Part shown: piece after piece, positions 1 through 12,283 of the stretch
Layout: each line of letters begins with the position of its first letter
Position numbering within the stretch: the stretch's first letter is position 1
Source of the DNA: a virus
Reading direction: 5' to 3' (one strand)
Virus genome (UHGV): UHGV-0153572
DNA length: 12,283 nucleotides
Notes under the pieces: model-generated
What the model was told of the DNA's origin: nothing
Database searches by the model: none
What the model saw: the letters and a program-made list of their open reading frames with translations, nothing else
Position numbers and translations under genes: made by a program

Positions 1-272
1 AGTAAGGCCAAACGCCTTAAAACGGTTGCAGGGGCATAGATTTTCAACCATTCATCTCTCAGCTTGGCGACATCGGCACTCCTGATGCTGGCCATATAGT
101 TTTTCGCCAGCTGAGTGCCTTTTAGTATCCGCACCAATGATTGGTCTTGCACTGCCCCTTTTTTGTCGGGAACAATCTCTTTTTCATATCGCGTTAGGGC
201 TTCATACAATGTCGTAGATTCCGCTTCGCTGCGGCTAAGCCAAACTCCTCTCGCCATTTCTGACTCGATCAT
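1..272 (-). CDS. Partial CDS (N-terminal ~90 codons; continues past the window start): putative tyrosine recombinase/integrase, core-binding N-terminal region
   Basis: Minus-strand ORF with ATG at 272..270 (alternative in-frame ATG at 284..282), open to position 1. Translation MIESEMARGVWLSRSEAESTTLYEALTRYEKEIVPDKKGAVQDQSLVRILKGTQLAKNYMASIRSADVAKLRDEWLKIYAPATVLRRLAL. The RYEK ... NYM(A/S)-I ... TVxRRLALL spacing resembles the core-binding domain of lambda-Int-type recombinases. Not in the ORF track because it is cut by the window edge. Confidence 0.4.
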   Translation of the reverse strand, partial: MIESEMARGVWLSRSEAESTTLYEALTRYEKEIVPDKKGAVQDQSLVRILKGTQLAKNYMASIRSADVAKLRDEWLKIYAPATVLRRLAL

Positions 273-501
273 TTTTGGGAACATACAATGTAATTAAAAT
301 AGACCCAGCTTACCGCCCTGCACCTATTGAACACAAAGATGTTGAGAGGGAAAACCTCGTTTACGGATTTGAGCTTCCCATTGGTAGTTACCACGTTTGC
401 GTATAGTCGCCATTTCTGTCTGATTCCTAACGAACTGTGGCAATATTGTGGCAAAAAATCCATTTAAATTCGATAGGTATTGATTTTACAAGATCAATTT
501 A

Positions 502-550
502 CGCATTCGTAATGCGAAGGTCGTAGGTTCGACTCCTATTATCGGCACCA
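502..550 (+). tRNA. Orphan 3' fragment (49 nt) of a tRNA-Thr(CGU) gene (thrW-type): anticodon arm, variable loop, T-arm, 3' acceptor strand and CCA; putative prophage att core, not a complete tRNA
   Basis: Sequence CGCATTCGTAATGCGAAGGTCGTAGGTTCGACTCCTATTATCGGCACCA matches, from memory, the 3' two-thirds of enterobacterial tRNA-Thr(CGU), including the GGTTCGACTCC T-arm and terminal CCA. The 27 nt upstream (475-501) do not match the 5' acceptor/D-arm, so no cloverleaf can form. Confidence 0.8.
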
Positions 551-564
551 TTTAAATCAATAAG

Positions 565-1728
565 TTACACATCATTAGTACCTTCCTTATTTTTTGACTG
601 GGACAAATTTGGGACCGATGGGTTCAGGATCGAGTCTATTTGCCGTGCGTGTTCGGTAAGGTGATTAGGTGCAAGGTGAGCATATCGACGAACCATTTCG
701 ATAGACTCCCACCCTCCCATTTCCTGTAACACTGACAACGGGACTCCGGCTTGAACCAGCCAACTTGCCCAGGTGTGTCTCAAGTCGTGAAATCTGAAAT
801 CATCAATACCAGCCCGTCTCAGCGCCGCTTTCCAGGCTGTGTTTGCGTCATACCGCATCTTCCTTACTGTTGGCGCTTTCGTTCCGTCTGGTTTGGTACA
901 GCTTTCCTTGTACACAAATACCCAACGGTGATGATTCCCGATTTGTTTTTTCAATACGCGACATGCAGTATCATTCAGCGCAACGCCAATTGCGCGGTTT
1001 GATTTACTCTCTTCCGGGTTTATCCATGCCACCCGGCGCTGCATATCTATTTGTTGCCATTCAAGGTTGATGATGTTCGAGCGTCTTAAACCTGTTGCCA
1101 GTGCAAATTCAACAACAGACTTTAATGGCTCCGGACATTCATCAATCAGCCTTTGTGCTTCATGGGGCTCCAGCCAGCGGATCCGTTTATTCTTTGGTTG
1201 AGGCACTTTAATAATTGGTGCCTTATCCAGCATTTTCCATTCACGCTCTGCGGCTCTTAGTAGGGCCTTTATAAATGAAAGATGCGTAGCCTTCGTTGCA
1301 ACGGACGCTGGTTTTGGCGTGTATTCTGGAACAGGTTTCCCTTTTTTTCTGCATGCTTCTGCCCTGAGTTTCCAGTTTTCCTCATGACGCCGGTTCGTCA
1401 TTTTCTGCATTGCTGAATAAATTTTTGATTCAGTAATGTCTCTTAGTTGCATTCCTGCGAAATGTTGAAGCCAGAATCCGATCCGGCTTTTGTCATCGTC
1501 CAGTGATTTTTTATGTGCTTTCTCTTCAAGCCACCTGACACACGCTTCCTCGAACGTTATATCAGGTATTTCACCAAGTTTGCTGACCCGCCATGCTTCA
1601 GCCTTTAGCTTGTCATGGAGTTCTGTCGCCTGCCTTTTGTCCTTTGTTCCAAGAGACTGTTTAAATCTTTTACCGTTCGGCAATGTGAAACTGGCGTACC
1701 ATATTTCACCTCTGCGGAAGAGTGACAT
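565..1728 (-). CDS. int: Site-specific tyrosine integrase, phage P22 Int-type (387 aa)
   Basis: 387-aa ORF with ATG at 1728..1726 preceded by an AGGAAAG/GAGG Shine-Dalgarno. C-terminal catalytic signature of tyrosine recombinases ([39 protein letters not shown], with R...HxxR...Y). Length and N-terminus ([24 protein letters not shown]) resemble P22 Int as remembered. Its 3' end lies 15 bp from the tRNA-Thr att core. Confidence 0.93.
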
Positions 1729-1955
1729 TTTCTTTCCTCTGTTATGCCATCACCCGCGCTCACCTGGACAGTATGCAGCGGAGACTGAAGAGCCGCAATG
1801 CAGGCTTGTCGTGTTGTGAGGTAAGGAGATTTATTCTTAGTGGGATCTTTGCGTGTTGCCTGAAGACGCCCTGTGCGTATCCAGTTAATGGCAGTCGGTC
1901 TGGATATCTTGAGAAAATGACAGGCCTCATCGAGTGTGAGGCTGTATGGCTCCAT
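1605..1955 (-). CDS. xis: Excisionase (Xis), helix-turn-helix excisionase family, 116 aa
   Basis: ATG at 1955..1953 with GAGGTG Shine-Dalgarno 6 nt upstream. N-terminus [33 protein letters not shown] fits the excisionase/AlpA-type HTH pattern. It overlaps the int start by ~120 nt, as in P22 xis-int. The ORF-track entry 1605..2039 is trimmed to the internal Met with an RBS. Confidence 0.75.
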
Positions 1956-2260
1956 TATTTCACCTCTTGCTGTGACATTGTTGAAAAATGGATACCAGCT
2001 CGTTGCTGCCAGACGATCCAACCGAGAGTCATATCCCATGCCATGTATTCGTTATCGCCGTTTTTTGCTCTCCGACGATCTACTAAGTCACCGAAACGCT
2101 TTTCCATGAATAATTCATAAGCTTCGCGTTCATCTGGTTCTACTTCCAGCGATAGGAGTGCGATTTCATAAGCACGGCGCTCAATATCGTCTCGCACGTC
2201 AAGGCTGCTGATACGCTCTTTAATTTCTTTAATCAGTTCTTTGTCGGTAAAAGTGATCAT
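1955..2260 (-). CDS. Hypothetical phage accessory protein (101 aa), acidic, no recognised domain
   Basis: ATG at 2260..2258. Its TAA stop (1957..1955) overlaps the xis ATG (TAATG), indicating translational coupling within the leftward operon. Sequence MITFTDKELIKEIKERISSLDVRDDIERRAYEIALL... Confidence 0.55.
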   Translation of the reverse strand: MITFTDKELIKEIKERISSLDVRDDIERRAYEIALLSLEVEPDEREAYELFMEKRFGDLVDRRRAKNGDNEYMAWDMTLGWIVWQQRAGIHFSTMSQQEVK

Positions 2261-2622
2261 TATGCTCCAGCCTCCGGTGCTTTTGGCATTATTGCCCAGT
2301 GAGTGATATTGACGTTTTCAAGGTCCCCGACCTGAAATGTCCACAGCCATTCTCCGGTTTCTTTTTGTCCCCAGGTGTACCAGAGAGAACGCCAGCCAAT
2401 TAGCCAGCCTTCTCCGTTAGCATCAAATAACAAAACACTTTCATTTGCTGGTGGCAGTTCAGCTGACACTGGTATTACTTTGTTTTCCTGTGCTGCACAT
2501 TTAGCTTCAAGCGCATCGAATTTACGCACCAGGTATTCAGCATCTGTTTCATTTACTTTCAGATCTCGCGGTACACATCTCCCACGAAGAAACCCTTCCA
2601 TTTCGAAAACATTCATGCGCAT
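2260..2622 (-). CDS. DUF551-like phage protein (118-120 aa)
   Basis: C-terminal Trp-rich block WLIGWRSLWYTWGQKETGEWLW...ITHWAIMPKAPE resembles the DUF551 signature (...THWMPLPEPP) common in lambdoid early-left regions. Candidate starts are ATG 2622 or ATG 2616; the latter overlaps the stop of the upstream HD gene (ATGA). Its stop overlaps the next gene's ATG (TAATG at 2258-2262). Confidence 0.6.
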   Translation of the reverse strand: MRMNVFEMEGFLRGRCVPRDLKVNETDAEYLVRKFDALEAKCAAQENKVIPVSAELPPANESVLLFDANGEGWLIGWRSLWYTWGQKETGEWLWTFQVGDLENVNITHWAIMPKAPEAGA

Positions 2623-3149
2623 TTGCGTAACTCCGATAACTCGTTAAAACGTTCCATAAACATCCCGTAGGCATGGCCCGGTGCCTGTGGAATCACTTTG
2701 AACATCTCTGTTGCCGGGATACCTTCCAGTACAGGCCAGAAAGAGCCATCATCAAGCCCGAGATCGCGGCGTTCGGTTGCCAGCATAATGAGATCGGCAT
2801 ATTTCACTGGCGTGCTCATAACAGGAGGTAACCCGTATTTCTCACGTATTACGGCGTCTATTTTTTCTTCCATCCGTTTATAGTCAGGAAGAAGTCGTTT
2901 CAGTGGTGCGGGGATGTCCTGGCAATATGCTTCTGTTGCATCATGCATTAAAGCTTCAAAAGCAAATTCCTGTGGCACCAGCTGGCTGCAAAGCACCGCA
3001 TGTTGGGCGACACTGTAGAAGTGTGAAAGATGTCCTGCAAAGCGACAGATATTTGAAAGGGAAACCGCGATATCGTTAATAACGATGTCGTCTTTATTTA
3101 TCCTGTCATAATAAAAATGCTTCCCGGAAAAAGTTTTAATAAATGACAT
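2613..3149 (-). CDS. HD-domain metal-dependent phosphohydrolase (178 aa from ATG 3149; the ORF extends to a GTG at 3176)
   Basis: H...HD motif context (VAQHAVLCSQ ... EALMHDATEAY) and later acidic residues typical of the HD phosphohydrolase superfamily. ATG 3149..3147 has a GGAGA Shine-Dalgarno 5 nt upstream; the longer ORF-track version starts at GTG 3176 without an obvious RBS. Confidence 0.7.
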   Translation of the reverse strand: MSFIKTFSGKHFYYDRINKDDIVINDIAVSLSNICRFAGHLSHFYSVAQHAVLCSQLVPQEFAFEALMHDATEAYCQDIPAPLKRLLPDYKRMEEKIDAVIREKYGLPPVMSTPVKYADLIMLATERRDLGLDDGSFWPVLEGIPATEMFKVIPQAPGHAYGMFMERFNELSELRKCA

Positions 3150-3273
3150 TTTGTTCTCCACGTATATGCGCTGCACCGCGCTGAATTCGGGTAAAAGGAA
3201 GCCCTCACCGTCCGGCGATTATTGAGTCAATTACATTTCCATAAATGCCCCCGTAGGGGCGGTTAGTTTCTCC

Positions 3274-3362
3274 ACAAAACAGAGAAGAACACCTGCGGTG
3301 GCAGCCGCCCGGATGGATTGGGTTATGAGCCCGTCGTCCGGTGATGCTCTTCTCTGTTTTGT
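3274..3362. repeat. 15-bp perfect inverted repeat (ACAAAACAGAGAAGA at 3274-3288; TCTTCTCTGTTTTGT at 3348-3362) with a 59-bp spacer, in the divergent intergenic region
   Basis: Direct reading: reverse complement of 3274-3288 equals 3348-3362 exactly. Lies between the leftward (int-proximal) and rightward operons. A GC-rich hairpin (GCCCC-CGTA-GGGGC, 3247-3260) lies just upstream. Confidence 0.6.
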
Positions 3363-3407
3363 AAAAAGGACGGTATCCGCCTGACGGCTAATCAGGCATA
3401 TCACCAG

Positions 3408-3611
3408 ATGGTGAAGCTGGGGATCGTCGAGCAGCGCGAACGATACAGCCGTACCGCGATTAACAACATCAAAAAATTCTGGTCGCTGACAGCGAAAGGC
3501 TGCATGTTCGGCAAGAACATCACCAGTCCTGCAAATCCGCGCGAGACGCAGCCGCATTTCTTCGAATCCCGATTCCCTGAGCTGTTAAAGCTGCTCGATA
3601 CCGTTCATTGA
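3408..3611 (+). CDS. Possible small hypothetical protein (67 aa); weak call
   Basis: ATG ORF ending 1 nt before the start of the next gene; amino-acid composition is more protein-like than the overlapping minus-strand 108-aa ORF. No strong RBS identified; could equally be non-coding regulatory sequence. Confidence 0.25.
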   Translation: MVKLGIVEQRERYSRTAINNIKKFWSLTAKGCMFGKNITSPANPRETQPHFFESRFPELLKLLDTVH

Positions 3612-3612
3612 G

Positions 3613-4608
3613 GTGACCGTGAGAGCACTACTGACCCCTGAAATAGCCCCGCGTATGGGGATCGTATTGTTCAGACCCGGTTCAGAGCTGATGCCCCTGT
3701 TTATGCAGGGGCGTGTCCTGCTGGAGCCTGAGCCGGAACGTTATTCATCTTTCGCCAGTGGTGCCGTTCCCGCGGCATCACAACCGCTGGCGGATGATCC
3801 TGCCGTTCGAGCCGTGTTCTGCAATGAGGCAGTGATCCGTCGTGCTGGTGGCGTGGAATGTCTTGAAAGCTGGTTACTTCGTGAAAAGGGCTGTCAGTGG
3901 CCTCATTCCGACTGGCACAGCGAGAACATGACCACAATGCGACACGCGCCGGGCGCGATCCGTCTGTGCTGGCACTGCGATAACCAGCTGCGCGATCAGT
4001 TCACGGAACGGCTGGAATCAATGGCAACGGATAACTGTGCCCGCTGGGTGTTGTCTGTTGTGCGTCGGGATCTCGGTTTTGATGACAGTCACGTTGTGAC
4101 AATGCCGGAACTGTGCTGGTGGCTGATTCGTAATGACCTGGCGGATGCCTTACCGGAAAGTGCAGCCCGTAAGGCACTGAGATTACCGAAGCCTGTTGTG
4201 CCGTCTGTCACCCGGGAAAGTGACCTTGTGCCTTCGGTTCCTGCCACCAGCATCATCCAGGATAAGGCGAAAAAGGTGCTGGCGCTGAAAGTGGATCCGG
4301 AGTCGCCGGAGTCTTTTATGTTACGCCCAAAACGTCGCCGCTGGGTTAATGAAAAGTACACGCGCTGGGTTAAGACACAGCCGTGTGCATGTTGTGGAAA
4401 GCCTGCTGATGATCCCCACCACCTGATAGGCCACGGTCAGGGTGGGATGGGTACAAAAGCGCATGACCTCTTTGTGTTGCCTTTGTGCAGAAAGCATCAC
4501 GACGAGCTGCATGCGGATACCGTGGCATTTGAAGAGAAGTATGGCTCCCAGCTGGAGCTGATATTTCGTTTTATCGATCGTGCGCTGGCAATAGGCGTAC
4601 TGGCGTAA
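3613..4608 (+). CDS. DUF968-like phage protein with C-terminal HNH/zinc-binding nuclease-like motif (~330 aa)
   Basis: C-terminal CACCGKPADDPHHLIGHGQGGMGTKAHDLFVLPLCRKHHDELH has Cys pairs and HH...H spacing like HNH-type modules. Overall architecture resembles the DUF968 (YdfU-type) proteins of lambdoid nin regions as remembered. Start is GTG 3613, or GTG 3619 with a GAGGTG Shine-Dalgarno. Confidence 0.7.
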   Translation: MTVRALLTPEIAPRMGIVLFRPGSELMPLFMQGRVLLEPEPERYSSFASGAVPAASQPLADDPAVRAVFCNEAVIRRAGGVECLESWLLREKGCQWPHSDWHSENMTTMRHAPGAIRLCWHCDNQLRDQFTERLESMATDNCARWVLSVVRRDLGFDDSHVVTMPELCWWLIRNDLADALPESAARKALRLPKPVVPSVTRESDLVPSVPATSIIQDKAKKVLALKVDPESPESFMLRPKRRRWVNEKYTRWVKTQPCACCGKPADDPHHLIGHGQGGMGTKAHDLFVLPLCRKHHDELHADTVAFEEKYGSQLELIFRFIDRALAIGVLA

Positions 4609-4621
4609 GTGGAGAACGAGC

Positions 4622-5350
4622 ATGAACCTTGAAGCTTTACCAAAATATTACTCCCCAAAATCTCCAAAATTGAGTGATGACGCACCGGCGACAGGCTCGG
4701 GTGGTTTAACAATTACAGATGTGATGGCTGCGCAGGGGATGGTGCAGTCGAAAGCACCGCTTGGGTTTGCCTTATTCCTGGCAAAAGTTGGTGTTCAGGA
4801 TCCTCAGTTTGCGATTGAAGGTCTGCTCAATTACGCGATGGCACTGGATAACCCGACATTGAACAAATTGAGTGAAGAAATCCGGTTACAGATCATCCCT
4901 TACCTTGTGAATTTTGCCTTTGCTGATTATTCCAGGTCTGCGGCAAGTAAGGCTCGCTGTGAGCATTGTGCTGGTACTGGATTTCATAATGTATTGCGCG
5001 AGGTGGTGAAACACTCCAGAAGCGGGGAATCTGTTATCAAGGAAGAGTGGGTGAAGGAACTATGTCAGCATTGTCATGGTAAGGGAGAAGTCAGCACAGC
5101 GTGCAGAGGGTGTAAGGGTAAAGGTATTGTCCTGGATGAAAAAAGGACCCGGCTTCATGGCACGCCTGTTTATAAGATTTGTGGGCGTTGCAATGGAAAC
5201 CGATTTAGCCGTTTACCAACCACACTGGCGCGGAATCATGTCCAGAAGCTGGTACCAGACCTGCCGAAGATCTGGGAAAAGTCACTTTCCGCCCGTCCAT
5301 CACGGCTTATGTGGTGGGAGATGACTGCTTTGACCAGCGCGATCGCCTGA
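4622..5350 (+). CDS. Phage antitermination protein Q-like protein with DnaJ-type zinc-finger repeats (242 aa); C-terminus possibly chimeric
   Basis: ATG 4622 with GGAGA Shine-Dalgarno. Four CxxCxGxG-type motifs (CEHCAGTG, CQHCHGKG, CRGCKGKG, CGRCNGNR; nt ~4958-5191). Resembles, from memory, the Q-type antiterminators of E. coli lambdoid prophages that sit next to a DUF968 gene. The last ~30 codons overlap, in another frame, DNA homologous to the DNA-circulation gene. Confidence 0.65.
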   Translation: MNLEALPKYYSPKSPKLSDDAPATGSGGLTITDVMAAQGMVQSKAPLGFALFLAKVGVQDPQFAIEGLLNYAMALDNPTLNKLSEEIRLQIIPYLVNFAFADYSRSAASKARCEHCAGTGFHNVLREVVKHSRSGESVIKEEWVKELCQHCHGKGEVSTACRGCKGKGIVLDEKRTRLHGTPVYKICGRCNGNRFSRLPTTLARNHVQKLVPDLPKIWEKSLSARPSRLMWWEMTALTSAIA

Positions 5351-6465
5351 TTGACGCGCTGAATAAACCCGGTCCCGGCACGCTTGTCCACCCGACATAC
5401 GGTGAGTTGAAAGTCTGTGTTGACGGGGAAGTTCGGGTCAGCACATCGAAGAGTGAAGGGCGTATTGTCCGCTTTGACCTGAAGTTTGTCGAAGCGGGAG
5501 ATCTCTCTTACCCCACATCAGGCGTGGCGACGGCGCAGACGCTGATGTCATCCTGTTCTGCACTGGATGACTGCATCAGTGACAGCTTCAGCGGTTTCAG
5601 TATCGATGGCGTGGCAGATTTTGTGCAGAACGACGTCGTCGGTAATGTCGGCACAATGCTTGGGTATGTTTCTGATGCGATGAAAGTGGTGGATTCTGCC
5701 GTATCGGATGCCGCCAGGCTGTTGCAGGGGGATATCTCGGTACTTCTTCCGCCGCCATCGTCAGGCAAAAATTTCGTTGAGCAGGTGCAGAAAATGTGGC
5801 GTACCGGGAAACGCCTTTATGGTAACGCCAGCGACCTGGTCACCATGATCAAAACGCTTTCCGGTGTCAGCCTTGGCAGCGATCTGCAACCGCGCGGCGT
5901 CTGGAAAACGGACAGTAAAACCACCGCCACGGCGACGCAGCAGCGTAACGTGGTTGCCAGCACCCTTCGTACGACCGCAATCAGCGAAGCGGCGTATGTC
6001 GTCACACGATTGCCTGCGCCCACAACTTCCGCGGTGATGCAGAATGCCACAGTGGGGCAGTCAACAACACCCGCGCAGAGCACCGGCTGGCCTTCTGTCA
6101 CGCATCCGGCACTGAACAATGCACCGGCGGTGAAAAACACGGTTGACCTGCCAACGTGGGAAGAACTGACCGACATTCGCGACACACTGAATACGGCAAT
6201 TGATAAGGAGTTGTCCCGTACAACCAGTGATGCGCTGTTTCTGGTGCTGCGCCGGGTGAAAGCAGATCTGAATGCGGATATCAACACGCGCCTTGAACAG
6301 TCTGCACGGATCATTCAGCGCACGCCGGATGAGGTTTTACCCGCGCTGGTGCTGGCGGCGACCTGGTTTGATAACGCGGCGCGTGACGCGGACATTATCC
6401 GGCGTAATGCCATTACGCATCCCGGCTTTGTGCCGGTGATCCCTCTGAAGGTGCCAGTGCAATGA
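5311..6465 (+). CDS. Mu-type DNA circulation protein (gpN family), N-terminally truncated; possible pseudogene
   Basis: Contains the family block AYVVGDDCFDQRDRLIDALNKPGPGTLVHPTYGELKV. The frame is open upstream only to 5209 (in-frame TAG at 5206-5208) and similarity begins around AEDLGK (~5263). The first possible start is GTG 5311 with no RBS, so ~45-60 N-terminal residues of a typical homologue are absent. Confidence 0.75.
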   Translation: MVGDDCFDQRDRLIDALNKPGPGTLVHPTYGELKVCVDGEVRVSTSKSEGRIVRFDLKFVEAGDLSYPTSGVATAQTLMSSCSALDDCISDSFSGFSIDGVADFVQNDVVGNVGTMLGYVSDAMKVVDSAVSDAARLLQGDISVLLPPPSSGKNFVEQVQKMWRTGKRLYGNASDLVTMIKTLSGVSLGSDLQPRGVWKTDSKTTATATQQRNVVASTLRTTAISEAAYVVTRLPAPTTSAVMQNATVGQSTTPAQSTGWPSVTHPALNNAPAVKNTVDLPTWEELTDIRDTLNTAIDKELSRTTSDALFLVLRRVKADLNADINTRLEQSARIIQRTPDEVLPALVLAATWFDNAARDADIIRRNAITHPGFVPVIPLKVPVQ

Positions 6466-7541
6466 ACGACAATGTCACGCTACGGGTAAATGGCCGGGAG
6501 TGGAATGGCTGGACATCGGTGCGCATCGGTGCCGGTATTGAACGGCTGGCGCGGGATTTCAGTGTGGAGATCACCCGCCAGTGGCCGGGAGATGAGGGTA
6601 TCACCACGCTTCAGCCGCGCATTAAAAACGGTTCAAAAGTGGAAGTGCTGATTGGTGATGAGCTGGTGATCACCGGCTGGGTGGAGGCGACGCCCGTTCG
6701 TTACGATGCCCGTTCGGTCAGCACCGGTATTGCCGGACGTAGTCTGACGGCTGACCTGATTGACTGTGCAGCCGAACCGACACAGTTTAACGGACGCTCG
6801 CTGGTGCAGATTGCGCAGGCGCTTGCTGCGCCTTTCGGCATTGAGGTGGTGAACAGCGGTGCGCCGTCGGGTGTTATTCCTGATGTTCAGCCTGATCACG
6901 GTGAAACGGTGATTGAGGTAATAAACAAAATACTCGGTCAGCAGCAGGCGCTGGCTTACGACGACCCGCACGGCAGGCTGGTGATTGGCGGTATTGGCTC
7001 AACGCGGGCACATACCGCGCTGGTACTTGGGGAAAACATCCTTTCCTGCGATACGGAGAAGAGTATCCGGGAGCGGTTTTCTGTTTACCAGGTGGCGGGG
7101 CAGCGTGCCGGAAACGACGATGATTTCGGTGAGGTCACCACCACCGCGCTGCGGGCCCGCACAGAGGACGCATTTATTGCCCGTTACCGTCCGATGTATA
7201 TCAGGCAGACAGGGCAGGCCACGGGGGCAGGCTGTATTGCGCGTGCTGACTTTGAAGCCCGACAACGGGCGGCGCGGACGGATGAAACCACCTATGTGGT
7301 GCAGGGCTGGCGACAGGGTAACGGTACGCTGTGGCAGCCCAACCAGCGGGTGATTGTCTTTGATCCGGTCTGTGGTTTCGACAATACCGAACTGCTTGTC
7401 TCGGAAGTCACGTTTACTCAGGACCAGAACGGCACCCTGACGGAAATCCGTGTCGGCCCGCCTGATGCTTATCTGCCTGAACCCGAAGCCCCCGGCGCGC
7501 GGAAAAAGAAAAAAGCCAGAGTACAGGAGGACCCGTTCTGA
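6462..7541 (+). CDS. Mu gpP-type tail/baseplate protein (phage late control D / baseplate hub family), 359 aa
   Basis: ATG 6462 overlaps the upstream stop (ATGA). Size, position directly after the DNA-circulation gene and sequence character fit the Mu P / P2 gpD family. Part of a tightly overlapping operon. Confidence 0.8.
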   Translation: MNDNVTLRVNGREWNGWTSVRIGAGIERLARDFSVEITRQWPGDEGITTLQPRIKNGSKVEVLIGDELVITGWVEATPVRYDARSVSTGIAGRSLTADLIDCAAEPTQFNGRSLVQIAQALAAPFGIEVVNSGAPSGVIPDVQPDHGETVIEVINKILGQQQALAYDDPHGRLVIGGIGSTRAHTALVLGENILSCDTEKSIRERFSVYQVAGQRAGNDDDFGEVTTTALRARTEDAFIARYRPMYIRQTGQATGAGCIARADFEARQRAARTDETTYVVQGWRQGNGTLWQPNQRVIVFDPVCGFDNTELLVSEVTFTQDQNGTLTEIRVGPPDAYLPEPEAPGARKKKKARVQEDPF

Positions 7542-8089
7542 TGAGGACGATTGAAGCCATGCAGCGACAACTTCTCGGCCTGATTGCGCGGGCAGTGGTG
7601 AAAAGCATCAGTGCCGCCACGAAATGTCAGACCGTGGATGTGTCCCTGATTGCCGGTGAACCCAAAGCCGGGGTTGAACATCTTGAACCCTACGGTTTTA
7701 CCGCAAGGGCAAACAGCGGCGCGGAAGCGGTGGTGTTGTTTCCGGATGGCGACCGTTCTCATGCGGTGGTTGTTACGGTGTCGGACCGGCGCTACCGCCT
7801 GAAAGGGTTGCAGACGGGTGAGGTGGCTGTCTATGACGATCAGGGGCAGTCTGTGACGCTGACCCGGGAGGGGATCGTGGTGGACGGTGCAGGTAAAACG
7901 ATCACGTTTCGCAATTCACCTAAAGCACGTTTTGAAATGGACCTGGAAGTGACAGGACAGGTGAAAGACCTGTGCGACTCCAGCGGCACTACCATGTCAG
8001 CGATGCGGCTTGCCTATAACGGGCATCGTCACAGAGAGAACGGTCAGGGCAGTAACACCGACAAACCGGATAAAGCGATGGAGGCATGA
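7541..8089 (+). CDS. Baseplate assembly protein V-type (Mu gp45-like spike protein), 182 aa
   Basis: ATG 7541 overlaps the upstream TGA (TGATG), with an AGGAGG Shine-Dalgarno. N-terminal region MRTIEAMQRQLLGLIARAVVKSI...GEPKAGVEHLEPYGFTARA is typical of the phage baseplate V family. Confidence 0.8.
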   Translation: MRTIEAMQRQLLGLIARAVVKSISAATKCQTVDVSLIAGEPKAGVEHLEPYGFTARANSGAEAVVLFPDGDRSHAVVVTVSDRRYRLKGLQTGEVAVYDDQGQSVTLTREGIVVDGAGKTITFRNSPKARFEMDLEVTGQVKDLCDSSGTTMSAMRLAYNGHRHRENGQGSNTDKPDKAMEA

Positions 8090-8514
8090 TGGAACTGTGG
8101 CTGACGGTGAACGGTAAACGCACCTGCGCCAGCGCACCGCTGGATCCGCTGACCCGCGCCGTGGTGATTTCCCTGTTTACCTGGCGGCGGGCGGAGCCTG
8201 ATGACAACGCCGACGTCCCGATGGGATGGTGGGGGGATACCTGGCCTGCGGTACAGAATGACCGTTACGGCTCCCGACTGTGGCTGCTTCAGCGCAGCAA
8301 ACTGACCAATCAGCTGGTGCAGACAGTAAGGGGGTATATCCGCGAATGCCTGCAATGGATGATTGATGACGGCGTGGTGTCCCGTATTGATCTGGATATC
8401 CGCCGCACCGGGATTAATGAGCTGGGTAACAGTATCACCCTCTGGCGTCGTGACGGACCGGTAATGATTTCTTTTGATGATCTGTGGAGTGCGATAACGC
8501 ATGGCGGACAGTGA
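8086..8514 (+). CDS. Phage GP46-family baseplate protein (Mu gp46 / gpW-like), 142 aa
   Basis: ATG 8086 overlaps the upstream stop, with a GGAGG Shine-Dalgarno. Small protein in the conserved position between the V-type and J-type baseplate genes. Confidence 0.8.
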   Translation: MMELWLTVNGKRTCASAPLDPLTRAVVISLFTWRRAEPDDNADVPMGWWGDTWPAVQNDRYGSRLWLLQRSKLTNQLVQTVRGYIRECLQWMIDDGVVSRIDLDIRRTGINELGNSITLWRRDGPVMISFDDLWSAITHGGQ

Positions 8515-9559
8515 ATTTCAGCGCCCGACGCTGGCAGAAAATATCAGTATGCTCCGTAACGATTTATTCGCCAGGCTGGACGTCAGCGACACGCTCCGGC
8601 GCATGGATGAAGACGTGCGGGCAAAGGTGTATGCGGCGGCGCTGCATACGGTTTACGGGTACATCGATTATCTGGCAATGAACATGCTGCCTGACCTGTG
8701 CGATGAGTCCTGGCTGGCGCGACATGCTGCGATGAAACGGTGTCCGCGCAAGGGGGCCACGGCTGCCAGCGGGTATATGCGTTGGGAAGGTGTCAGCGAT
8801 GGCCTGAAGGTGACCGCCGGGAGTGTTATTCAGCGCGATGACCTGGTTCAGTACACGGCAACTGCCGATGCAACCAGCTCCGGTGGTGTCCTGCGCGTGC
8901 CGATCGCCTGCTCAAGTGCAGGCGCGGTCGGTAACGCTGACGACGGTACGTCATTAATCCTGGTCACGCCGGTTAATGGTCTGCCGTCTTCCGGCGTGGC
9001 AGATACCCTTACAGGCGGATTTGATACTGAAGAGCTGGAAACGTGGCGCGCCCGCGTCATTGAGCGGTATTACTGGACGCCTCAGGGCGGGGCTGACGGG
9101 GACTATGTCGTCTGGGCTAAAGAAGTGCCCGGCATTACCCGCGCATGGACATACCGTCACTGGATGGGAACGGGAACTGTCGGTGTGATGATTGCCAGCA
9201 GTGACCTGATTAATCCCATTCCGGAAGAATCAACGGAAACGGCAGCAAGACAACATATCGGGCCACTGGCCCCGGTGGCAGGCTCTGATTTGTATGTATT
9301 CAGGCCGGTGGCACATACGGTGGATTTTCATATCCGCGTGACGCCGGACACACCGGAAATACGGGCTGCCATTACCGCGGAGTTGCGTTCGTTCCTGCTG
9401 CGTGATGGTTATCCGCAGGGAGAACTGAAGGTATCGCGTATCAGTGAGGCGATTTCCGGTGCGAACGGGGAATACAGCCATCAGTTGCTTGCACCGGTGG
9501 ACAATATCTCCATTGCGAAAAACGAACTGGCGGTACTGGGGACGATTTCATGGACGTGA
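8501..9559 (+). CDS. Baseplate J-like protein (Mu gp47 family), 352 aa
   Basis: ATG 8501, overlapping the upstream gene by 14 nt. Size and synteny (after gp46-like, before the DUF2313 gene) fit the Baseplate_J family. Confidence 0.8.
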
Positions 9560-10134
9560 CAAACGATGATTACATCCGCCTGTTATCGGCACTGTTGCCG
9601 CCCGGTCCGGCGTGGTCAGCCAGCGATCCGGCGATTGCCGGTGCGGCACCGTCATTAACCCGTGTTCATCAGCGTGCGGATGCCCTGATGCGGGAGCTGG
9701 ATCCGCGCACCACCACTGAACTGATAAACCGCTGGGAGCGTCTGTGCGGTCTGCCGGATGAATGTATTCCGGCGGGAACGCAGACCCTTCGCCAGCGTCA
9801 GCAACGGCTGGATGCGAAGGTTAACCTGGCGGGCGGCATCAACGAGGATTTTTATCTTGCACAGCTTGCTGCCCTGGGCAGACCAGATGCCACCATCACG
9901 CGATACGACAAAAGCACGTTCACCTGCTCATCGGCCTGTACTGACGCGGTGAATGCGCCGGAATGGCGGTATTACTGGCAGGTCAACATGCCAGCCGCCA
10001 CCAACACCACCTGGATGACATGTGGCGATCCCTGTGATTCCGCACTGCGTATCTGGGGTGACACCGTTGTCGAGTGTGTGCTTAACAAACTCTGCCCGTC
10101 GCATACCTACGTAATTTTTAAATATCCGGAGTAA
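9550..10134 (+). CDS. DUF2313 tail protein (Mu gp48 / P2 gpI-like; YmfQ-type), 194 aa
   Basis: ATG 9550, overlapping the upstream gene by 10 nt. N-terminus [22 protein letters not shown]... and the Cys-rich C-terminus resemble, from memory, the YmfQ/DUF2313 proteins encoded immediately upstream of tail-fibre genes. Confidence 0.8.
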
Positions 10135-10137
10135 TCC

Positions 10138-10902
10138 ATGCATCGTATAGACACGAAAACCGCGCAGAAGGATAAGTTCGGCGCGGGTAAGAACGGTTTT
10201 ACCCGTGGTAACCCCCAGACCGGCACGCCTGCCACCGATCTGGATGATGACTACTTTGACATGTTGCAGGAAGAGCTTTGTGGCGTGGTGGAGGCATCCG
10301 GTGCCAGCCTGGAGAAGGGGCGGCATGACCAGCTGCTTACCGCGCTTCGTGCGCTGCTGTTAAGCCGCAAGAATCCGTTTGGCGATATCAAATCGGATGG
10401 CACCGTGAAAACGGCTCTCGAAAACCTTGGTTTGGGAGAAGGTGCTCCAGCTATTGGCGTTCCGTTCTTCTGGCCGTCCGCTGCAATGCCAAATACTGTA
10501 ATCGACAGCTGGTCCGGTATGGTGTTTTTGAAGTTCAACGGCGCGAAATTCTCTGCCACTGATTACCCTGTGCTGGCGAAAGTGTTTCCTTCGCTGGTAT
10601 TACCTGAAGCCCGCGGTGATTTCATTCGTATCTGGGATAATGGTCGTGGTGTAGATAGTGGACGTGGATTACTTAGTACGCAGTCTGACCTGATGAAACA
10701 ATTTACTTTGCAATACTACGGTCCTTCTGCTGGTACTGGAACAAGAACGGTTTTCGCCCTCCAGAGTAATGCGAACGGCATATATACGAGTGGTATTAGT
10801 CAGAATGATGGTAGTGGCACCGCTGCGGCTTTTAATGTACCAGGCGGCACCGAAACACGCCCACGTAACATTGCATTCAACTTTTTAGTAAGGGCTAAAT
10901 AA
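10138..10902 (+). CDS. Tail fibre protein (S-type): conserved N-terminal baseplate-attachment region plus variable C-terminal receptor-binding region, 254 aa
   Basis: ATG 10138 with GGAG Shine-Dalgarno. N-terminus [55 protein letters not shown] is the conserved tail-fibre constant region. Codons ~93-101 ([10 protein letters not shown]) are encoded by a Hin/Gin-type crossover-like site. The AT-richer downstream part is the variable region. Confidence 0.85.
10415..10440. other. Candidate Hin/Gin/Cin/Pin-family DNA-invertase crossover site inside the tail-fibre gene
   Basis: CTCTCGAAAACC-TT-GGTTTGGGAGAA: 26 bp with near-symmetric 12-bp arms around a central dinucleotide. It matches the remembered hixL (TTCTTGAAAACCAAGGTTTTTGATAA) at 19/26 positions and shares the AAACC/GGTTT core with gix. 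It sits at the constant/variable junction of the fibre gene, as gix does in Mu S. Confidence 0.55.
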
Positions 10903-11495
10903 TGAAACCTGTTTTTGATAAAAATGGGCTGGCTACAGTACCGGGTGATATGCGTTGTTTTTATTATGATGCAGTAACGTCTGAATATACTGGCTGGTCT
11001 GATGAATATATTAATACTGGTGTAAGTATGCCCGCCTGTTCCACTGGTATTGACCCGGGCGAATACATTCCGGGGAAAGTGGCAGTATTTACGGGTAAGG
11101 GATGGAGCCATGAAGAAGACCACCGCAATGAGACTGCTTACTCAATCGAAAATGGCGCAGCTGTTACAGTGGATTATATCGGTGCCATCAAAGACGGTTA
11201 TGTCACGCTTTCACCGTTAACGCCATACGATAAATGGGATGGTGAGAAATGGGTGACAGATACTGAGGCACAGCATAGTGCCTCAGTAGACGCGGCAGAA
11301 GCACAGCGCCAGTCGCTGATTGATGCTGCAATGGCTTCCATCAGTCTGATTCAACTGAAATTGCAGGCCGGGCGGAAGCTGACGCAGGCAGAAACAACCC
11401 GACTTAACGCCGTGCTGGATTACATTGACGCGGTGACGGCAACAGATACCAGCACCGCGCCGGATATCATCTGGCCTGAACAGCCGGAGGCGTAG
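10902..11495 (+). CDS. Tail fibre assembly chaperone (Tfa / Mu U-type), 197 aa
   Basis: ATG 10902 overlaps the tail-fibre stop (TAATG). N-terminus [36 protein letters not shown] and C-terminal DTSTAPDIIWPEQPEA are characteristic of the Tfa family. Confidence 0.9.
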   Translation: MKPVFDKNGLATVPGDMRCFYYDAVTSEYTGWSDEYINTGVSMPACSTGIDPGEYIPGKVAVFTGKGWSHEEDHRNETAYSIENGAAVTVDYIGAIKDGYVTLSPLTPYDKWDGEKWVTDTEAQHSASVDAAEAQRQSLIDAAMASISLIQLKLQAGRKLTQAETTRLNAVLDYIDAVTATDTSTAPDIIWPEQPEA

Positions 11496-11907
11496 GCCAT
11501 TCAATATCTGGAGCACTGGAAGTATCGACCAGTTCCAGTGCGTCAAGATAATCCAGCCATAAATTATATTGCGCCAGTTCCTCACCTTTCAGACGACCAA
11601 TAGCAGCCTTTCCTGGCCACTGCTTACTGTTAATATATTCATTAACTCGATTTATGAGTGCCTGTTTTTTTCGTTCCGCTTCTGACAGTTGTTCTTCATG
11701 AGTTAGCGGCGGTACGTCATCCCATGCAGGATAGCCATCATCACCCGCAACTCTCACTTTCCCTGGAGGTGGGGACAGGTACTTAATAAATATATCCTCA
11801 TCAACTTCAACTCCATTATGAGGCCATAACCCAGACTTCTTATACTGACTTTCCAGAGTAAATGGGTAAAACATATTAGTTTTAGCATCGTAAAGATATT
11901 TACTCAT
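11467..11907 (-). CDS. Second tail fibre assembly chaperone (Tfa'-type), inverted orientation, 146 aa
   Basis: ATG 11907..11905 with AGGAAG Shine-Dalgarno 7 nt upstream. C-terminus ...LVDTSSAPDIEWPTPPAVQAR carries the Tfa family motif. Its 3' end overlaps the plus-strand tfa 3' end convergently by 29 nt. The ORF-track version (to 12006) is trimmed to the Met with an RBS. Confidence 0.8.
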   Translation of the reverse strand: MSKYLYDAKTNMFYPFTLESQYKKSGLWPHNGVEVDEDIFIKYLSPPPGKVRVAGDDGYPAWDDVPPLTHEEQLSEAERKKQALINRVNEYINSKQWPGKAAIGRLKGEELAQYNLWLDYLDALELVDTSSAPDIEWPTPPAVQAR

Positions 11908-11908
11908 T

Positions 11909-12283
11909 TTATCTTCCTGTGGCAAACCAGCGGCAACCAGCGACAGTTGGAACATTGAAGGATGGATTTCCTTTATCAAGAGATCCCAGGTTATCTGCCA
12001 TGACACTTGAGTTAGTCAATTGATAGAATTGCCATACTGACATTTTCCCTGGCACAGGAGCATGGTCATGTTCATTAATAGAAATGACGCCTGTCGGAAA
12101 TGGGATAGGAAAATTAATCAAAACTTCATTTATTGTGGCCCCAGTTAGCCCCCATTGTTCAATATAACCATCCGGGCTTCGCCTCCATCCCGTCGTTGTA
12201 TCTCCCCAAAAGCCAAGAACTCGGACATTGGCAGCAGCACCAGCATGTGGATCAGTGCTACATCCATTTTGGTATCTCTTGCA
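11909..12283 (-). CDS. Partial CDS (C-terminal 124 codons; 5' end beyond the window): alternative tail-fibre C-terminal (receptor-binding) region
   Basis: Minus-strand frame is open from the window end to the TAA at 11911..11909, 1 nt before the tfa' start. Translation ...ANVRVLGFWGDTTTGWRRSPDGYIEQWGLTGATINEVLINFPIPFPTGVISINEHDHAPVPGK... contains the PDGxIxQWG-type motif of tail-fibre distal domains and a diverged copy of the LGxGxG junction. Confidence 0.7.
   Translation of the reverse strand, partial: CKRYQNGCSTDPHAGAAANVRVLGFWGDTTTGWRRSPDGYIEQWGLTGATINEVLINFPIPFPTGVISINEHDHAPVPGKMSVWQFYQLTNSSVMADNLGSLDKGNPSFNVPTVAGCRWFATGR

Follow-up and report, generated by a model that had tools for sequence, protein, structure and literature searches.

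According to its ORF list and family scans (Table 1), the window analysed here, the whole 12,283-nt stretch of the viral genome UHGV-0153572, has early genes of lambda type and a contractile tail of Mu type, as do the lambdoid myoviruses of the SfV/SfI/e14 group. It is a degraded, defective E. coli prophage of the lambdoid SfV/e14 type, located next to proA at the tRNA gene thrW; phage SfI integrates at thrW adjoining proA (PMC3636060). On the 3' side of the baseplate genes follow the tail fibre and then the tail-fibre assembly genes, as seen in the ORF list and family scans. A tRNA scan of the window found no complete tRNA, because only a partial thrW att core lies there.

Table 1. Genes, gene remnants and junctions in the window, numbered from its first base.
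Feature	Position	Strand	Details and basis
Tyrosine integrase	565-1728	minus	ORF list, family scans
HTH/excisionase-like gene, then yfdT-, yfdS- and yfdR-like genes		minus	ORF list, family scans
Second, independent deletion junction	3372-3375		GGTA microhomology common to both parents (10/13 imperfect over 3372-3384)
DUF968 gene	3613-4608	plus	ORF list, family scans
Q antiterminator ORF, 242 aa, frame 2	4622-5350	plus	PF03589, E = 9.7e-42
Q', first 214 codons of an antitermination gene of the Q-lambda family (250 aa when intact), a pseudogene truncated at its 3' end	4622-5263	plus	Alignment, PF03589, PGAP
TAG closing the tail-gene frame upstream, in Q-derived DNA	5206-5208	plus	Translation
Deletion junction	5263/5264		Last Q base 5263 (G), first tail-gene base 5264 (C); three-way base comparison
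28 foreign codons and TGA ending the Q' ORF (tail-gene DNA in the wrong frame)	5264-5350	plus	
Mu gpN-like baseplate/tail gene, 5'-truncated, from the second base of codon 43 to the stop	5264-6465	plus	
GTG, earliest start available to the truncated tail-gene frame, equivalent to codon 59 of the intact gene	5311-5313	plus	ORF list
ORF with the C-terminal two thirds of Pfam DNA_circ_N	5311-6465	plus	ORF list, family scan
Kept baseplate genes (gp44/P-, gp45-, gp46-, gp47/J- and gp48-like)	6462-10134	plus	ORFs intact, directly 3' of the scar

Two observations concern the surroundings of the central region. In the ORF list the DUF968 gene begins at GTG 3613, a codon without a Shine-Dalgarno sequence (-1.5 kcal/mol); PGAP and the gene calls in other loci start it 6 nt downstream at GTG 3619, which has a good one (-6.9 kcal/mol) and gives a protein of 329 aa. 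The left flank of the prophage (window 1-504) varies between the genomes and contigs that carry the element. In the window, in strain TUM10008 and in locus L007 another integrase island abuts the prophage on the left, in strain E4 the flank is a CP4-type island with Ag43 and cbtA/cbeA, and in locus L011 it is proA directly. These variable flanks indicate tandem island accretion at thrW.

The comparison of the window with intact Q and tail genes allowed us to place the junction between them to the base. Base 642 of the Q gene, the last of codon 214, is joined to base 128 of a Mu gpN-like gene of the kind annotated as DNA circulation or DNA circularization protein. Aligned at the join, intact Q reads ...GACCTG/ACGGATT, the window ...GACCTG/CCGAAGA and the tail gene ...CCTATA/CCGAAGA, the latter from a base-by-base comparison with two intact tail genes. 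The base-by-base comparison with intact Q and tail genes revealed neither filler DNA nor a mobile element at the join. Microhomology or a repeat was considered as the cause of the join and rejected: position 5263 matches Q only and position 5264 matches the tail gene only, and the sole matches in the immediate flanks are scattered (T at -2, CG at +2/+3).

The same boundary is found in genome collections. In a megablast search of window 4400-6000 against 5,426 complete E. coli genomes, the Q side was matched in 3,789 genomes and the match ended at window 5263-5266 in all but two of them, while the tail side (query 5200-6500, coverage of at least 80%) was matched in 1,080 genomes and always started at window 5264. 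Phage records break homology at the same base as the E. coli genomes. Their left half is the Q of phage Ayreon and of Stx2c phages (~98% identity) and their right half the 'tail/DNA circulation protein' of SfII/SfI/SfV (97.9-98.4% identity), and the two halves are adjacent in none of the 50,697 phage records. The initial annotation, made from the letters of the window, had proposed a breakpoint within 5190-5315, an interval that indeed holds the junction, and had let the similarity to DNA-circulation proteins begin in frame 1 at about 5263, where we find nucleotide 5264. At the amino-acid level, identity in the tail-gene frame begins at the E of codon 5266-5268; the A that precedes it (5263-5265) is specified by GCC, a hybrid codon with its first base contributed by Q. 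Translation of frame 1 around the junction gives a TAA at 5173 and a TAG at 5206, followed by ...RPAEDLGKVTFRPSITAYVVGDD, and the in-frame TAG at 5206 blocks the frame upstream, as had been claimed.

On the left of the junction, residues 1-214 of the truncated Q (hereafter Q') are 100% identical to the full-length Q of strain ECCHD184. The ORF then continues with a foreign C-terminal tail, PKIWEKSLSARPSRLMWWEMTALTSAIA, which puts 28 residues in place of 36 native ones. Both earlier statements about this ORF, namely that it is a Q-like ORF in frame 2 ending at 5350 and that its C-terminus is translated from DNA of the tail gene, agree with the family match in Table 1 and with the divergence from full-length Q (WP_077520917.1) after residue 214. 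Full-length homologues are 250 aa long and end differently, in a conserved C-terminus that can be aligned with the last part of Q-lambda (PDB 7ubm), and the 28-residue tail is otherwise found in exact copies of the same fusion alone.

Proteins of the Q-lambda family (PDB 7ubm, 4mo1, 7ubj; PF03589; including E. coli QuuQ/YdfT) provide a measure of what was lost. Full-length relatives of Q' align to Q-lambda end to end, the aligned parts of full-length Q being residues 1-120 and 160-250 in the comparison with PDB 7ubm. Q' keeps the N-terminal region, in which residues 1-120 align to Q-lambda 1-125, together with the zinc-ribbon cysteines in their CxxC motifs, whereas the lost residues 215-250, the equivalents of Q-lambda 172-207 in this alignment, are replaced by unrelated sequence. 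The HTH of Q-lambda sits on a four-helix body, of which residues 153-207 form half. NusA contacts are made by residues 182-197 and, upon refolding, contacts to the RNAP flap-tip helix by residues 195-207; antitermination is lost when L202 or T206 is substituted (PMC9388147). The C-terminal body of Q' is incomplete, lacking the last HTH helix as well as the NusA-contact and flap-tip-helix-contact segments. From the alignment to Q-lambda and these published residue roles we infer that Q' is dead. Probably Q' has lost its target site too. In the window it is followed directly by tail-gene DNA in place of the sequence found after Q in intact relatives, and by analogy with lambda the Q-dependent late promoter, the Q-binding site and the terminator would have been in the lost Q-to-holin intergenic DNA.

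On the right of the junction, the tail-gene frame matches the DNA circularization protein of strain F1005, 442 aa long, at 399/399 positions from residue 44 to residue 442. The missing 5' part amounts to 127 nt (42 codons plus 1 nt) relative to this 442-aa form and to 57 codons relative to the 457-aa annotation of ECCHD184, and 58 N-terminal residues would be missing if translation began at GTG 5311. The initial annotation had rightly described the gene as truncated but had estimated the loss at roughly 50 codons, compared with the 42 counted against the 442-aa form. Of the 88 profile positions of Pfam DNA_circ_N (PF07157), the remnant covers 31-88 and the intact protein 2-88; a product from GTG 5311 would keep positions 55-88 only. 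The gene had also been said to lack a proper start and ribosome-binding site, and the first start available, GTG 5311, indeed has no Shine-Dalgarno sequence: the anti-Shine-Dalgarno pairing energy of the 20 nt upstream is -1.7 kcal/mol, weaker than the window median of -2.8 kcal/mol, and the values for PGAP-annotated gene starts in the window are -3.9 to -10.3 kcal/mol.

An intact relative aligns over residues 10-433 to phage Mu gpN (gp43; PDB 9ki1; PF07157), and the family, which includes Mu gpN and baseplate-centrepiece proteins, is conserved from about residue 10. The DNA-circularization homologues listed are mostly 442 or 458 aa long, with a few shorter ones, one of them labelled partial, and none of those listed was found to start naturally at the equivalent of 5311. 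Both conditions that the initial annotation had set for its own refutation, one on the Q homologues and one on these, were decided in its favour, and its interpretation is essentially right. As in Mu, the gene is located directly upstream of the gp44/P-like hub gene, which overlaps the gpN-like stop at 6462-6465. Unlike Mu gpN, the copy here has no start codon, no ribosome-binding site and lacks 42 codons, with which 30 of the 88 positions in the N-terminal domain profile are lost. With its start signals absent and a third to over half of the conserved N-terminal domain gone, the gpN remnant would, judging from its sequence, be dead as well. An NCBIfam scan assigned neither of the two remnant ORFs to a family at the cut-off, a result that fits pseudogenes and is uninformative alone. 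Equally uninformative on the expression of the remnants was a consensus promoter scan of 3200-6600, with one hit against 2.3 expected by chance; the terminator-like hairpins found in this range are inside coding sequence.

The availability of an intact relative allowed us to determine what once separated the two genes. In the apparently complete, near-ancestral prophage that strain ECCHD184 has beside proA at tRNA-Thr (thrW), a distance of 15,818 bp separates the breakpoints, window 3372-5263 corresponding to positions 31939-30048 of the ECCHD184 locus and window 5264-10443 to positions 14229-9050. Both flanks of the junction have the same order and orientation as far-apart genes of intact relatives, and the integrase, HTH and YfdR proteins of the ECCHD184 prophage have RefSeq protein accessions identical to those of the carriers. 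Between the breakpoints ECCHD184 has 22 complete late genes. After the end of Q come a small hypothetical gene, the holin, a GH24 endolysin and a lysis protein (Rz-like); then a hypothetical gene, an HNH endonuclease, the small and large terminase, YmfR and the portal; then the prohead protease, the major capsid, connector and closure proteins, the tail terminator and DUF2635; and finally the sheath, the tube, a tail assembly protein (chaperone), the tape measure, a hypothetical gene and the start of the DNA-circularization gene. In the elements of E4 and TUM10008 no holin, endolysin, terminase, portal, capsid, sheath, tube or tape-measure gene is annotated, and the ORFs of the window agree. 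The junction thus marks a loss of late genes, as had been proposed from the sequence; the further claim that the whole late region was lost is correct for the lysis, head and tail-shaft genes but not for the baseplate, tail-fibre and invertible-segment genes, which are kept intact.

The early region has been shortened independently. The second junction links a point ~195 nt upstream of yfdR with the final ~80 codons of a KilA-N gene, and ~7.4 kb of the ECCHD184-type early region is missing, including the repressor/cro-like genes, ymfL, the replication genes, the methylase, RusA and the N-terminus of KilA-N. PGAP annotates the remaining C-terminal fragment as 'KilA-N, incomplete, missing N-terminus'.

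The Q/gpN junction is present in 2 of the 5,426 complete E. coli genomes, E4 (CP104516; poultry, USA) and TUM10008 (CP135658; Japan). In both, PGAP has annotated an 'antitermination protein, incomplete, missing C-terminus', the end of which corresponds to 5263, and a 'DNA circularization protein, incomplete, missing N-terminus', the two halves abutting at the equivalent of 5263/5266. In a large protein collection the exact 242-aa fusion ORF is found on 87 contigs and the 384-aa truncated ORF on 94 contigs, both unnamed, and the other listed members of their clusters are mostly 250 aa (Q) and 442-458 aa (DNA circularization) long. The truncated tail gene directly follows the fusion ORF in all four of the retrieved loci that reach past it. 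The presence of the junction in two complete genomes and on ~90 contigs shows that it is real and inherited. Over the element, the carriers and the window are almost identical (e.g. 5 differences in 9.9 kb in the comparison with E4), so that the event was recent; it probably arose once.

Copies of the doubly deleted element also differ in location. On an ENA metagenome scaffold (locus L008, positions 1-3200) it is situated by fimZ and tRNA-Arg(TCT) (argU, the DLP12 site), while other copies are at thrW/proA (L011, ECCHD184-type). The integrase on this scaffold, 387 aa long, is markedly divergent (about 70% identity), and about 375 of the 379 differences from the window fall in window 500-1750, the remainder being essentially identical. 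Either an exchange of the integrase module took place after the deletions or the scaffold is chimeric.

We consider it very probable that one illegitimate-recombination event in a defective prophage fused a truncated Q gene to a truncated gpN-like gene, with the loss of ~15.8 kb. The comparisons show a single non-homologous join, with the DNA between Q codon 214 and gpN-like codon 43 lost. The blunt join would point to homology-independent end joining or to topoisomerase-mediated illegitimate recombination and not to slipped mispairing, which is unlikely because no repeat is common to both sides at the join. In the absence of sheath, tube and tape measure the assembly of a tail would be impossible, and the baseplate and fibre genes still present would have lost their late promoter. 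With the second deletion, in which the repressor, cro and replication genes went, the element would be neither inducible nor able to propagate. As the late promoter and early control would both be lost, expression would depend on fortuitous promoters.

The closest relatives of the two arms are not the same. ECCHD184 matches the left arm at 99.9% identity, whereas the right arm is 98.1% identical to ECCHD184 and 99.6% to the prophage of strain F1005, which has another early region and is at another locus; identities of at least 99% to the right arm occur in three records only, the two carriers and F1005. No perfect undeleted ancestor was found in the complete-genome set. The closer match of the right arm to F1005 suggests that the parent was an unsampled mosaic or, less likely, that two resident prophages were joined by illegitimate recombination, a thrW prophage supplying the left arm and an F1005-type SfV-like prophage the right one. 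We regard such a join as unlikely. In the carriers and in the ECCHD184 thrW prophage, but not in F1005, pinE is followed by a LEM-3-like GIY-YIG gene, and this common order favours deletion within one prophage. Furthermore, a large part of the chromosome would be deleted or inverted if distant prophages recombined, and modular mosaicism, which is the rule among such phages (PMC3636060), explains the difference in identity. The outcome would in any case be unchanged, a non-homologous join that loses the late genes. We attach practically no weight to the idea that assembly or scaffolding joined two prophage fragments, even though prophage repeats often misassemble and some of the carriers are metagenome scaffolds: two complete genomes of different national origin, isolate draft assemblies and ~90 contigs drawn from several sources all show exactly this junction, and the join offers no repeat common to both sides that could mislead an assembler. 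An assembly artefact was rejected on these grounds.

Inheritance of the scar without further decay on ~90 contigs, together with the intactness of every downstream baseplate and fibre ORF and a fibre segment that still inverts between strains, might be taken to mean that the Q fusion with its new C-terminus and the shortened gpN have been selected as a functional pair, e.g. in a tailocin-like or fibre-donor module. This seems to us highly improbable. The carriers are near-identical, so that the ORFs would be intact through recency and not through selection; the absence of sheath, tube, tape-measure and lysis genes means that no tailocin could come from the element; Q' is without the conserved, functionally mapped residues; and GTG 5311 is without a ribosome-binding site. 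It is very unlikely, too, that the doubly deleted remnant is anything but inert, i.e. still exchanged or relocated between prophage sites or serving as a reservoir of baseplate and fibre genes. The remnant does keep an integrase, an intact baseplate, the fibre and Pin-inversion module and the Q' fusion, and its occurrence with two integrase modules at two tRNA sites (thrW in isolates, argU/fimZ on the metagenome scaffold) could mean relocation. If it were a reservoir, its baseplate and fibre genes would be kept for recombination with incoming SfV-like phages.

Deletion within a single defective prophage has a precedent. The element e14 of E. coli K-12 is likewise of the family with lambdoid early genes, an HK97-type head and a Mu-type tail (PMC3636060), and it too has undergone internal non-homologous deletions that fused truncated genes into chimeric ORFs, leaving as scars the 'chimeric replication protein/phage terminase YmfN' (oweE'/'aaaE) and a beeE that overlaps the jayE pseudogene. 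It also keeps the ymfQ, fibre, tfa and pin (pinE) genes. The two elements differ in their breakpoints, which in e14 connect a replication gene with terminase and portal with baseplate J, and here Q with gpN and yfdR-side DNA with KilA-N, in their attachment site (icd in e14, thrW here) and in their baseplate, which is kept whole here (gp44-gp48) and only from a J fragment onward in e14. Among the complete members of the group, SfV, SfI, SfII and SfIV have tail/DNA circulation and baseplate genes to which the tail arm from 5264 on is 97.8-98.4% identical, and the ECCHD184 thrW prophage has the same int, HTH, YfdR, DUF968 and Q. Unlike the element described here, all of them have a full-length Q and a full-length DNA-circulation gene, with the lysis, head and tail-shaft genes between.

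What we describe is ordinary prophage decay: nothing departs from the known pattern, and both pseudogenes are already flagged in RefSeq. The importance of the junction is mainly a matter of correct annotation and extends little beyond, in that the predicted 242-aa and 384-aa ORFs should be read as pseudogene products and not as a new Q variant or a short gpN. It also provides a base-precise example of prophage domestication or decay through two non-homologous deletions, one blunt and one with a 4-bp microhomology, and adds another e14-type remnant, with other breakpoints and another attachment site. In practice, the element could be used to mark the lineage of the E. coli strains in which it occurs.

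At its right end the window differs from the carriers in orientation. Window 10422-12207, which contains the C-terminus of the tail fibre and the assembly genes, is inverted relative to E4, TUM10008 and locus L007, and the crossover site GAAAACCTTGGTTTGGGAGAAGG is found at about 10419-10441; the segment is a Pin-type invertible fibre cassette in the other orientation. The last 76 bases of the window (12208-12283) have no counterpart anywhere in the 25-kb E4 locus, and a simple two-site inversion would put the reverse complement of E4 locus 18043-18105 at this position. A degenerate crossover-like motif, TTCTTGGCTTTTGGGGAGA, is present on the minus strand in this end of the window and suggests that there is one more alternative fibre cassette or a third site of crossover.
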